Shown here in pieces: positions 24,449 through 56,361 of a stretch of DNA of 64,000 nucleotides. Location of the stretch: assembly GCA_951406725.2 (NCBI GenBank), contig OX597827.1, forward strand, positions 11,160,001 through 11,224,000. The letters run 5' to 3'. This stretch comes from Octopus vulgaris (lineage: Eukaryota). Each line of letters starts with the position of its first letter. Position 1 is the first letter of the stretch. The translations under genes were made by a program, and so were the position numbers. Below the pieces are notes generated by a model that saw nothing but the letters and a program-made list of their open reading frames with translations, was not told the DNA's origin and ran no database searches.

Positions 24449-24623
24449 TATATATTTAGAGGTTGATTGATATGTGTGAATATATATGTGTGTATATGTA
24501 TGTATATATATATATATATATATACCGGAGTAAACACATAAATGTGAAACAAGGTGGAAAAAAGAGTACTCAAATACCAGTGGTAGAGTAATATGCTTTA
24601 TTTTAAGCAGCAGAAAATTCAAC

Positions 24624-24671
24624 AAAATCTGTTACTCTGAGTTTCTCGTTGTCGTTCATCAGACAGTTTTT
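24624..24671 (-). ncRNA. Minimal type-I hammerhead motif, left arm of palindrome
   Basis: Reverse complement reads ctgt-CTGATGA-acgacaacga-GAAA-ctcaga-GTA|acag. Confidence 0.65.
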
Positions 24672-24677
24672 GCTAGC

Positions 24678-24725
24678 AAAAACTGTCTGATGAACGGCAA
24701 CGAGAAACTCAGAGTAACAGATTTT
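24678..24725 (+). ncRNA. Minimal type-I hammerhead motif, right arm of palindrome
   Basis: ctgt-CTGATGA-acggcaacga-GAAA-ctcaga-GTA|acag. Stem I ctgt/acag; stem III ACTC-A-GAGT. Confidence 0.7.
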
Positions 24726-24753
24726 GTTGAATTTTCTGCTGCTTAAAATAAAG

Positions 24754-35796: not shown

Positions 35797-36573
35797 TTAT
35801 CATCATCATCAAGAACAACATGACAGCAGAGTTACCATCACATTTACACAAGACATTTTGACTGAGGGTTTTTATTCCTCCTTTCTTTTTTCTTTCTTCT
35901 TTTCTCTTTACCTTTGTTACCAGTTGTGAAAAATGAAAATTGATGACTTTTTGTTTTGACTAAAAAGGAACCCTGGATATTCCAGTTCAAAGTTTGAACT
36001 TCTGTATTTCTGCAAATTTTTCAGTTTTCGTTATGAAGTCAAAGAAGACAGACATGCCGTTGAAATATTGTTCAATTCAATAAACAGTCAATTTTTATTT
36101 AATACAAATCATATTGTACTCTTCTCTTTGTGTATTGTTATTATTATTATTATTCTGACTTTTCATGTTCACATTTCAAATCCTGATGAGGTCAACTTCG
36201 ACTCTCATCCCTCTGTTGTGGATGAAATAAAGTACCAATCAAGTTCTGGGGCTGATAGCATCAACTAATTCCACTACCCTCAAAATTATTGGCCTTGTGC
36301 CAAAATTAGAAAGAATTATCAGCATCATCATTAATGAAGCATCTCTTAAGACTTAGGTTAATATAACAGACTGCACAGCTATGCCACACCCCTTAAAACA
36401 TCTGTGCTGTCATGGCTAATTTAGAAATAATTATTAATAATCAAGCAAAATAAAATTGATAATCAGTCATCCTTATATTAACATTGCATTAACTCAAAAG
36501 TTACATTTTAATATTCTCTTAATTACTGCTGTATTACGCATTCAGAAACATTTCGAAATATATATTTGTAATA

Positions 36574-36831
36574 TATATTTGCGAAGAGGTTGCAGTCATT
36601 TCAGCGAGCGAGACTGGCTACCCTGAACTGACGACGAACAACAGACTCAGAAACCTATGTCTTCAGGTGCTTAGTCCCAGCTGGCAGGGGTGATTACCTC
36701 CCCTTTGCAAATATAAGGACACAGAAAATGTGTCAAAGCCAACTGGAGACGTCAATGTTTCCTAGGGCTAAATGGCGGTGGTGTAATTCCCTTACGGGAC
36801 TGTCACATTGAGTTGGACAGTATATGACTGC
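36574..36831 (+). mobile_element. 258-bp hammerhead-containing retrozyme-like element with 13-bp flanking direct repeat
   Basis: tatatttgtaata at 36561-36573 and 36832-36844; GC-richer self-complementary interior; type-I hammerhead at 36622-36667. Confidence 0.6.
36622..36667 (+). ncRNA. Type-I hammerhead ribozyme motif
   Basis: cctgaa-CTGACGA-cga(acaacagac)tca-GAAA-cctat-GTC|ttcagg. Perfect 6-bp stem I, intact core, GUC site; the stem II closing pair is a C-A mismatch. Confidence 0.75.
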
Positions 36832-36984
36832 TATATTTGTAATAGTTTTTTCCCCCAAATAATGGAGTGTATTTCATTCTAACCTTGTTTTGCTTTTTTT
36901 TCTCCTGGAAGTTGTATACCTTCTGGTCAATCTCAGCTATTGAGAAATATGACAACTTTAAGAATATTTTATAATATATTTAAT

Positions 36985-38860: not shown

Positions 38861-38990
38861 CATACATATATATATATATATTTACAAATTCAATATCCCT
38901 ACATATCTCATATCTATTTTCTTTCGTCAACCTCACTCTCTATTTTGTATCCTATCTAAATTAATTATTACTTAACCATCCTCTCACACC

Positions 38991-39042
38991 GTCTCTGATG
39001 AAGGGAAGTAATTAATAAATATCCTAGAAACAGCTGTAAGAC
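38991..39042 (+). ncRNA. Minimal type-I hammerhead ribozyme motif (Penelope-like element end)
   Basis: gtct-CTGATGA-aggga...tccta-GAAA-cagct-GTA|agac. Stem I gtct/agac; palindromic stem III ACAGCTGT, as in dimer-cleaving PLE hammerheads. Confidence 0.75.
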
Positions 39043-39151
39043 ATTTTATCTATAAATATTGTAAAACCTACACACCCTTTGTTTTTCATCTCATTATGCA
39101 AAAAATTATTATATATATATATGTGTGTTTATGTATATATATGTGTTTATG

Positions 39152-53461: not shown

Positions 53462-53660
53462 CACAAATTCACACATATATATATGTATATATATACATAT
53501 ATATTATGTTTTTTTATTTTTACCCATAATATTGTTTGTTCTAGTGTTTTGTTAAAAAAAAATGTACCAGTCAGATGCTGGGTTTTGTCACCACCATCCC
53601 CCGACACCAAAATCGTTATTCAAGATCATAAGGATATAAGTGTGCATTATTTGTTGTTAC

Positions 53661-56054
53661 CTGCTTGGTACTTGGTAGCTTTGTGGCTAAGGTCGAAGTT
53701 TTCCAATCATTCTGAGAGACATCCTCAGAATAGAGTTGACTCCTTAATCCTACCAACTGAATATTCCTGTTTCTCATTTCACTGGGACTTTTGGGAATGA
53801 CAACAGAACTATCCGTTTGGTTGATCAATTGTCTTCTTTCACTGCGAGAGTTCAACGAAGGATTCATTACTTCAACTGCTCCACCTTGGGCCGCGTTTCT
53901 CGCTCTGTTACATCGTATTATGCATGTTGCTATAGACACCACTACAGCTATAGATACAATCATGGCTACTAACACTATTACTATTGCAAAATCTACTTCA
54001 ACCATTTCATTCAAATTTTTGTTTACGGCAGGCATAATCCTAGAAGTCTTATTGCTGACAGTCAGCGTCAAGGACACTGTTGTCATTGCAGATAAGACTG
54101 GTGTTCCACTGTCTTTGACAATAAATTCTAAATTATAAGATCCAACATCATCTTGGTAAACTGGACGAGAAAAAGATAAAACTCCAGTGTAAGGATTCAC
54201 ACTAAACAAATGTTTGTCATTGCCTCTGAGTATTTCATATTTGAGAAAAGCATTTGTCCGGCTGTCTCTGTCAAAGGCTTTCAGAACTGTGATATTAGTT
54301 TTTTTGTTGGGATAATAGTGGACATCAAGACTGAAAGGGTTGACACTGGGAAAAGAAAAGTAGGGGGCATTGTCATTCTCATCCATTACTTCGATGAAAA
54401 CATTTGCTGTGTTATTAAAAGAAGGTTTACCATTGTCTTTGACAAAAACTTGGAATTTATAAATGTTTTTAATTTCATGGTCCAATGGTTTTCTTGTAGA
54501 AATAAATCCATAATTTGTGATCTGGAAAGGAAAATTATATTTATTATTGGTCAAAAGGGAATAGGTCAGTTGACCTCCTTGTCCTAAATCAGGGTCAGTG
54601 GCATTGATAAAACCAATGGGAAAATTAGCTTTTTTATTTTCATAAGTCAAAAACTTGAATGTTGATTTTGTGAATTTGGGTTGTACGTCGTTGACATCCA
54701 TGACTTGGATAGAGAATTTTCTTTTAGTTTCTAAGGAAGGAGAACCTTGATCCTCACAGGAAATAGTGATATCGTAATGGTCCTGGACTTCCCTATCAAC
54801 TGGATCCTTTAAATTTACTTTATATTCTTTTGATTCCAACATTAAAAGCTGAAATTTATCATGGTGAAGTTCACAGGTCACCTCACCGTTAAGTCCAATG
54901 TCATTATCAGTGACCATGACATATGCAATAAAGCTACCAACAGCAGTGTCTTCTGAGATAGTTGCTGAGCTCTCACTAACGGGTGACACAAAATTGACAT
55001 CAATACTTGGATAATTGTTTTGTTGGTTGATAATATTTACAAGAACCAGAACAGCTGAGCTCAATGGTGGTTTTCCTTTGTCAGTTGCTCGCACGTATAA
55101 TTCATTGAGGAGTTTACTTCTTAGTGGGAAAATTTGCTGCAGGTAGATCTCACCAGTTCTTTCATTTAACATGAAATGACTTTTAGTTGATGAAGCAGTC
55201 TTTGAACTGAAATGATAAGAAACCTTACCATTATCACCTGAGTCTAAATCAGTTGCTGTTAATGTAATAATTGGCATCATTCTGCTTGCTTTATTCTTGG
55301 TGGTAATGTTATAAACCTTTCGTAAAAAAACTGGAGTATTGTCATTAACGTCAGTAACTGTTACTTTGACAATTAAAACACTTTCTTTGGGTGGCAAACC
55401 ACCATCTTTAGCTACAATCTCAAGAACATATTTATCTTGCTTTTCTCTGTCTAGTTTTTCTTTTAAGAAAATTGAAAGTTGTGATATTCCATCGACACTT
55501 TTGGAAGTTGATAATGCAAATGGATTATCTATATTATTTCCGAGGTGGTAGCTTATTTGAGAATTCTGGAGCCCAACATCTCTGTCAATTGCATTTGGGA
55601 TTGATCGTCGCACACCGATGCTGGCATCTTCTGAAAACTGAATGTTGATCTCTTCGTTTTTAAATTTTGGTTGGTGATCATTGATGTCTTGAATAACAAC
55701 ACGCACTTTTAAAATCTTTATAAATGCTTTTGCTTGTTGAATGGCAATTTTTATGGTTTTGAAACATTCTTGATTATATGAACAAAGTGTATCGCTATCA
55801 AGTGTCTGAGCAGTATATATTTTTCCTGATTTTGTGACATTGAATAATTGAGAATTTTGAGTGACGCTGCGTTGAAATTGACTGAAAGTTACCTTACTTC
55901 GGTCAGTCAGTAAATTGCTATCATATAAATGCATATCTACAGCAATATCCCCGAGGTAAGTCCCTTCTTCTTCTCCTTCTTTCACATAATATGTAAAGTC
56001 TATACACAGGCAGTAGTGTAAGTATAACAAACAAATGCCAAAATTTAGCTGCAT
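53661..56054 (-). CDS. Pcdh: Protocadherin, large first coding exon (signal peptide, EC1-EC6, TM, proximal cytoplasmic tail; 798 codons)
   Basis: 812-aa ORF with a hydrophobic N-terminus and cadherin motifs ([45 protein letters not shown]). EC1 has C-X5-C (CSYNQEC) and the TM is [26 protein letters not shown] strong acceptor ttttctttgttttccattttcag precedes 56081, and a phase-0 donor CAG|GTAACA follows Q798 at 53661. The symbol is family-level only. Confidence 0.96.
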
Positions 56055-56361
56055 ATTTCCTCTGTGTTATAAAGGAATATCCTGAAAATGGAAAACAAAG
56101 AAAAGATTTTATTCAGTGCATGAAAATACTTCAAAATAAATAATTTTGAGTTATTATGAGGTTTAAGGCCAGATTAATAATAAAAGAACTGAAATCCAGA
56201 GGAAGATGTCTTTTCGTTTTGGCAAGTAAAATTAATGTAAATAATATTCTTTTAAATGTTTTGAAAAAGTGGATGGAAAAAAAATCATATTTGTTTACGA
56301 AACATCTTCTTGTAATGAAGTCAATCAAAGAATAACTGATATATGTATATGTATATATATA

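Follow-up and report, generated by a model that had tools for sequence, protein, structure and literature searches.

The window, the whole 64,000-nucleotide stretch of Octopus vulgaris DNA analysed here (GCA_951406725.2, contig OX597827.1, forward-strand positions 11,160,001 to 11,224,000), harbours a short non-coding insert that carries a type-I hammerhead ribozyme motif and lies between identical 13-mers; its features, together with two genomic loci discussed below, are collected in Table 1. Elsewhere in the window lie a protocadherin ectodomain exon of 816 codons (53616-56066, minus strand), an inverted pair of hammerhead-like motifs adjoining a TA run (24620-24750), which is probably a Penelope-like element (PLE)-type inverted insertion of a different family, and a further type-I hammerhead-like motif with the palindromic stem III ACAGCTGT (38985-39050), for which a profile search found no relation to the family of the insert, hereafter family A.

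Table 1. Features of the hammerhead-bearing insert (window coordinates) and of two LINE loci (genome coordinates).
Feature	Position	Strand	Basis or remark
Left 13-bp target-site duplication	36561..36573	+	Exact repeat
Family A retrozyme unit, 5′-truncated (bases 1-262 of 354)	36574..36835	+	Unit alignment
Long hairpin, 5′ closing arm (hairpin holds hammerhead)	36574..36582	+	Predicted fold
Site of LINE-derived insertion elsewhere in family A; empty in window copy	36600..36630	+	L176, L177, L211, L217, L241, L258
Type-I hammerhead	36622..36667	+	Motifs and cross-family comparison
Hammerhead stem I	36622-36627 / 36662-36667	+	
Hammerhead core CUGACGA	36628-36634	+	
Hammerhead stem II	36635-36649	+	
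G>A, breaks outer pair of stem II	36638	+	3/30 copies
Hammerhead GAAA	36650-36653	+	
Hammerhead stem III	36653-36660	+	
A>C, breaks stem III palindrome for dimer pairing	36655	+	2/30 copies
End of GUC, predicted cut site	after 36661	+	Sequence motif
Long hairpin, 3′ closing arm	36707..36715	+	Predicted fold
Conserved 3′ hairpin (ctgtc/gacag)	36800..36820	+	Kept across families, with a U-A to C-G change (alignment columns 277-293)
Right duplication copy	36832..36844	+	First four bases (TATA) common with element 3′ end
Intact young LINE (L322)	G000:C15:61018100-61025400		One site of family E
Tandem array of five young LINE copies	G000:C2:73040000-73073000		One family E site

The insert and its flanking duplication were both present as originally predicted, and the limits of the element required revision: it had been taken for a 258-bp unit, and its 3′ end in fact lies at the first of two family A 3′ ends, overlapping the right duplication, so that what was read as one whole monomer is a 5′-truncated part of a tandem unit. 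The copy is solitary inside the window, as had been noted, and one of many genome-wide, with 95.4% identity to the majority of 30 family A copies. The two segments described as complementary close a long predicted hairpin, the fold of the region beating 200/200 shuffles (z -5.67), and the ctgtc/gacag hairpin was likewise located. Three changes specific to this copy turn 36824-36831 into the perfect reverse complement of 36592-36599, possibly by chance or by template switching at the end of the insertion. The gcagtcat/atgactgc match pointed out in the original prediction exists by virtue of these changes and is not a family feature, as the family reads ACGACCAC at that place (65/96 ends); the pairing is also absent from the predicted fold. 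Contigs from two other organisms run across the 5′ junction of the element, which makes an old insertion, common to several organisms, probable; an empty insertion site was not seen among the joints listed.

Related copies, on which the original prediction depended, were found in the genome searched (2.8 Gb, 227 contigs), and head-to-tail tandems among them, with dimers at L009/L017, L104 and L110, define a non-coding unit of 354 bp, inside the 150-450 bp range of non-LTR retrozymes, with 43% GC. At least 40 near-full-length copies besides that of the window are 91-95% identical (the best 40 of 2933 candidates), and exact 24-base patterns from the hammerhead and the 3′ end gave 40 and 142 matches, respectively, with 0 for reversed controls. 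Sixty-six family A insertions were examined and 30 loci were picked by their 3′ end alone; the arm analysis covered 90 arms at 64 loci, of which one was entered twice, and drew on 90 input loci, 60 of them picked because they hold the hammerhead. Seventy-four of these arms terminate at just two sites (40 at 260-263 and 34 at 316-320), which lie 55 bases apart. An inverted arm is present in 23 of the 64 loci, typically with each arm ending at a different site. The copies are 5′-truncated and their targets are AT-rich or (TA)n, many arms running into (TA)n. Outside pure TA runs, exact flanking repeats of at least 9 bp occur at 14 of 54 loci, several of them TA-rich, and exact repeats of at least 6 bp are absent in 37 loci; the 13-bp duplication of the window copy is longer than the 4 bp that serve as lower limit for non-LTR retrozymes.

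PLEs have been reported to possess two 3′ ends that correspond to two reverse-transcription start sites, together with a tail and inversion pattern (bioRxiv 2021.04.23.441226, PMC11167929, in the text available). Since the ends, truncation and inverted arms of family A match this pattern, the mover of family A is, by analogy, likely to be a PLE. The octopus genome itself holds a young PLE with a 781-aa reverse transcriptase (RT) and GIY-YIG frame and two ends ~40 bases apart that run into (TA)n; in this family (L091, L092, L093) an extra frame of ~360 aa lies upstream, and the terminal repeat carries a U3-A8 hammerhead. The insert is thus interpreted, with good confidence, as a 5′-truncated, likely inactive copy of a 354-bp hammerhead repeat that was likely pasted in by PLE enzymes. 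It could instead be a detached terminal repeat (pLTR) of an undiscovered autonomous Penelope-like element, which would explain the PLE-type ends and the hammerhead and for which it may be argued that frog retrozymes match pLTRs (2026 preprint, available portion) and that only a small part of the PLEs of this genome was covered (40 loci of 6136 candidates). Against this, whole head-to-tail units exist, and what precedes the unit in the 66 insertions is either a further unit or unique flank and in no case a PLE frame, leaving this alternative very improbable. The original prediction had itself named the terminal repeat of an ordinary autonomous Penelope element as a competing identity, and an RT/GIY-YIG frame was found beside family A in 0 of 90 loci. 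Matching family A sequence was not found in any of the 40 GIY-YIG loci (30 plus 10 extended) searched for a helper PLE, the family A profile matches inside such loci being adjacent retrozyme copies and not PLE sequence.

Sister families B, C, D and E were found in the flanks, in clusters ~56-87% alike to family A, and allowed the hammerhead to be compared across families. In an alignment of 23 copies, hand-chosen across families, all 6/6 pairs of stem I change on both sides, giving the covariation that the original prediction had proposed to look for. Stem I covariation was 0.516 as compared with 0.249 in shuffled alignments (0/500) and at most 0.106 when the stem was slid; because related sequences can beat a shuffle, the weight rests on the slide control and on how many distinct families were compared. 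Stem III is palindromic in 87 of 125 distinct hammerheads, with at least seven different sequences, and core positions 3/8 are C-G in 107/125 and U-A in 11/125; both the C-G/U-A core and the palindromic stem III have been reported for dimer-cutting PLE hammerheads (PMC4209133, in the part available). The sister families keep the hammerhead by compensatory changes and by a stem III that varies yet remains palindromic. Since this stem keeps changing in sequence without losing its palindrome, the hammerhead likely cuts as a dimer, and the strength of the covariation shows the ribozyme to be under selection. Families with the core CCGAUGA in place of CUGAUGA were also observed (L249, L255, L264, L305).

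Some observations count against the preferred reading of a PLE-mobilised, self-cutting repeat. The pair at the base of stem II is non-standard in 17 of the 23 aligned copies, and it is C-A in 67 of the 125 hammerheads, the next pair being G-C in 108/125. Dimers of frog retrozymes were described as failing to cleave in 8/9 cases (2026 preprint, available portion); the axolotl HHR_Amex2, by comparison, has a mismatch at the stem II base and still cuts, better as a dimer (PMC7229834, available text). The C-A mismatch, originally regarded as a possible weakness of the window copy, occurs in 28/30 family A copies and is a family trait, so it was rejected as a lesion. Rfam reported no hammerhead for the insert at E up to 10, nor, with E limited to 1, in five loci drawn from four families.

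The window copy is nevertheless distinguished from its relatives by two other changes, G>A in stem II and A>C in stem III (Table 1), the combination of which is found in this copy only among the 30 compared. Because of these changes, stem II and the dimer helix are lost in prediction, with energies of 0.0 kcal/mol for stem II as compared with -1.5 in a family copy and +0.4 for the stem III self-duplex as compared with -7.0. The hammerhead had been called well-formed; its motifs are indeed where they were placed, whereas its stems II and III are damaged, and the copy is probably dead on the basis of these models.

In the cycle proposed under the preferred reading, tandem units would be transcribed, two hammerheads would pair by their palindromic stem III and cut, and the unit-length RNA would close into a highly paired circle. 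The PLE endonuclease/reverse transcriptase would then nick AT-rich or (TA)n DNA, and copying would begin at either of the two fixed sites and run round the circle until the enzyme falls off; the window copy would represent a start at the first site and a stop after 262 bases. Cleavage, the circle and the PLE identity of the enzyme are the inferred parts of this cycle. As a circle, the family A unit is predicted to fold with -111.5 kcal/mol and 65% of bases paired (z -5.1, 0/100 shuffles as low). Among arms from loci of which 60 had been chosen for holding the hammerhead, only 1/90 5′ ends falls at the predicted cut site (position 88), and such a lack of pile-up fits a circle and equally an uncut tandem transcript. 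The longest family A arm measures 741 bases and the arrays are short, which weighs against the preferred reading. It is conceivable, if rather improbable, that the repeat is PLE-mobilised and non-autonomous as proposed and is copied from linear, uncut tandem transcripts, the hammerhead being retained for some other step without any circle: in most family A insertions the sequence continues unbroken across the cut site, partial tandems are normal in PLEs (bioRxiv 2021.04.23.441226, available text), and in vitro PLEs insert from RNA that is unprocessed, with no need of the hammerhead (PMC11167929, available text), a point against the preferred reading. On the other hand, the strong covariation argues for selection on the ribozyme, and in one young insertion as many as five segments carry the same private variants, a pattern for which one circular template is the simplest source.

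These variants come from family E, with a unit of 362 bp, two ends near 237 and 300, arrays of up to ~4 units and copies that are 99-100% identical, so close as to suggest that the family is currently amplifying. Its hammerhead has a UUGAAAA core and a palindromic ACGCGT stem III (L331:1501-1862; L326-L354). In L352, L350 and L343/344, the three clear cases among 25 family E insertions, private variants are common to all overlapping units and to both arms, and in family A the derived variants that units share amount to 0.0164 per base within an insertion as compared with 0.0044 between insertions. One circular template would account for this sharing, as would an unsampled, homogeneous donor array. 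Pieces of the superfamily also occur in four assembled contig sets presumed to be RNA, from which level, ends and circles cannot be read.

Two family A loci were interrupted at the identical base within the hammerhead by one common sequence, a 1.6-kb element in which only an ORF1 zinc knuckle is present. Exact matches to the 3′ end of this derivative number 91 genome-wide, and in the first 30 loci a hammerhead element follows directly in 24, a target stub in 2 and off-target sequence in 4; a search with zf-RVT recovered autonomous relatives, 3 of which were on target among the first 30 loci. Several ORF1-only derivatives (L176:285-1911, L259, L272) have the 3′ tail and hammerhead target in common. 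Additional LINE loci were chosen by profile range and not by flank, and a quick FastTree run on 56 genomic copies (target labels of L277, L314 and L368 hand-assigned) placed 34 of them in one clade with support of ~0.85-0.92. Within this clade, 25 copies end before a hammerhead, 1 before a target stub, 2 at the 5′ end of U1 snRNA and 4 elsewhere, with 2 lacking a located end; none of the other 22 copies is on target. The shares of 25/34 clade copies and 24/30 derivative ends exceed the >20% of copies at one flank used as a criterion in PMC4494074 (available text), and this L1/Tx1-type LINE clade inserts by preference into the retrozyme superfamily. Of the U1 placements, one is Rfam-confirmed and the other known by a U1-like 5′ junction alone; clade members at a U1 snRNA gene or with such a junction are L313:6196-6359, L312 and L239. 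The one close hit of the LINE that bears a name is a pol-like protein of Ciona, at 27%, and the clade may fall in Tx1 or in L1. In a different LINE clade (L289, L291, L303, L284), copies often end before one common sequence, possibly another specific target.

LINE insertions of this clade lie upstream of the hammerhead core, at a distance of 15-35 bases, and because of the target duplication a whole hammerhead remains downstream of it. An intact young member of 5354 bp encodes an ORF1 of 512 aa and an ORF2 of 1140 aa (endonuclease, RT, zf-RVT), a zinc knuckle being present in ORF1 of the clade, and occupies a family E site flanked by a duplication of 16-17 bp, alongside tandem arrays and 5′-truncated copies. 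Since 5′-truncated copies occur at the site, the LINE inserts independently; pure hitch-hiking as the source of the LINE-retrozyme pairs was rejected, the 5′-truncated LINEs having their own duplication (L362, L269, L262). At L217 the inversion takes in the LINE cargo, which suggests that such cargo is sometimes also copied via the PLE route. Duplications of 13 bp, such as that of the window copy, are typical of LINEs too. This and the tight link between LINE clade and superfamily might suggest a SINE-like repeat moved by the adjoining LINE, an explanation we consider the least probable of all: the repeat lacks the AATAAAGA 3′ end of the LINE and shows a pair of PLE-type ends in (TA)n, and the LINE lies within the repeat with a duplication of its own and is present in just 2/66 family A insertions and in 0/29 family E loci besides the query. 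With PLE mobilisation retained as the preferred reading, a three-tier chain may tentatively be envisaged, though the balance is somewhat against it, in which PLEs move circular-RNA retrozymes and an active LINE clade, specialised on these, is transcribed from within them, uses the restored downstream hammerhead to cut the 3′ end of its RNA and is aided in homing by the target sequence which that end carries, the clade having switched between U1 snRNA and hammerhead targets.

The evidence supports the original assignment of the insert to a retrozyme-type family of the metazoan non-LTR kind, one that bears a type-I hammerhead; the host group is new, and the flagged copy itself is an ordinary decayed member of a kind already known. 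As in the mussel (350-390 bp) and axolotl (Rtz_353) retrozymes (Cervera and de la Pena 2020, PMC7229834, available text), the unit is non-coding, ~350 bp long and below 50% GC, occurs in tandem copies and has a type-I hammerhead with a short palindromic stem III, long duplications and a highly paired circle, which, like cleavage, is predicted from sequence in octopus. Unlike in those retrozymes, the arrays are short, the stem II base is C-A and PLE-type double ends are visible. To date, as had been surmised, no octopus family appears to have been described: no cephalopod retrozyme and no hammerhead-targeting LINE was found in the literature searched, which did not extend to subscription journals, Repbase or Dfam, where prior annotation is possible. 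The terms octopus, cephalopod and squid do not occur in PMC7229834, and the available text and one supplement of an O. vulgaris repeat paper report active Penelope and L1-Tx1 families without mention of hammerheads or retrozymes.

The link of animal retrozymes to PLEs has so far come from co-occurrence and repeat trees, mainly in vertebrates (2026 preprint, available portion). In the octopus superfamily, the PLE signature is directly legible in the insertion ends, and with an amplifying family E beside intact PLEs, both the proposed circle and the proposed helper become open to direct tests. The Neptune and Poseidon PLEs (PMC4209133, PMC11167929, bioRxiv 2021.04.23.441226, as far as available) and the octopus repeat have in common AT or (TA)n targets, a hammerhead with the C3-G8 to U3-A8 core variant, a pair of 3′ ends with a tail, 5′ arms in inverted orientation and partial tandem copies; the octopus repeat differs in that it has no RT or GIY-YIG frame, its tail is 55-63 rather than 30-40 bases long and its sequence is unmatched by the PLE loci compared.

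The octopus LINE resembles members of the Tx1 clade, such as Tx1L in Tx1D, Keno in U2, Tx1-Mar in Mariner-N4 and Kibi/Koshi, in its CCHC ORF1, its endonuclease-RT-zinc ORF2, its tandem insertion at one multicopy site and its snRNA link, one octopus copy lying in U1 (PMC4494074, available text). Transposons, snRNA genes and microsatellites are among the Tx1 targets listed there, with one unnamed satellite target in the tree legend, and R2 co-transcription is also noted. The octopus LINE differs from the known Tx1 LINEs of that source in that its target is a hammerhead retrozyme and the ribozyme is restored downstream by the duplication. A ribozyme-bearing retrozyme is apparently an undescribed LINE target and would constitute a new target class for site-specific retrotransposons, the case resting on the intact young member and the defined 16-17 bp duplication.

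R2 elements carry an HDV-like ribozyme. The octopus LINE would likewise be a site-specific LINE that likely relies on transcription of its target and on a ribozyme to free its RNA, with the difference that this ribozyme would be borrowed from the target and would lie downstream.
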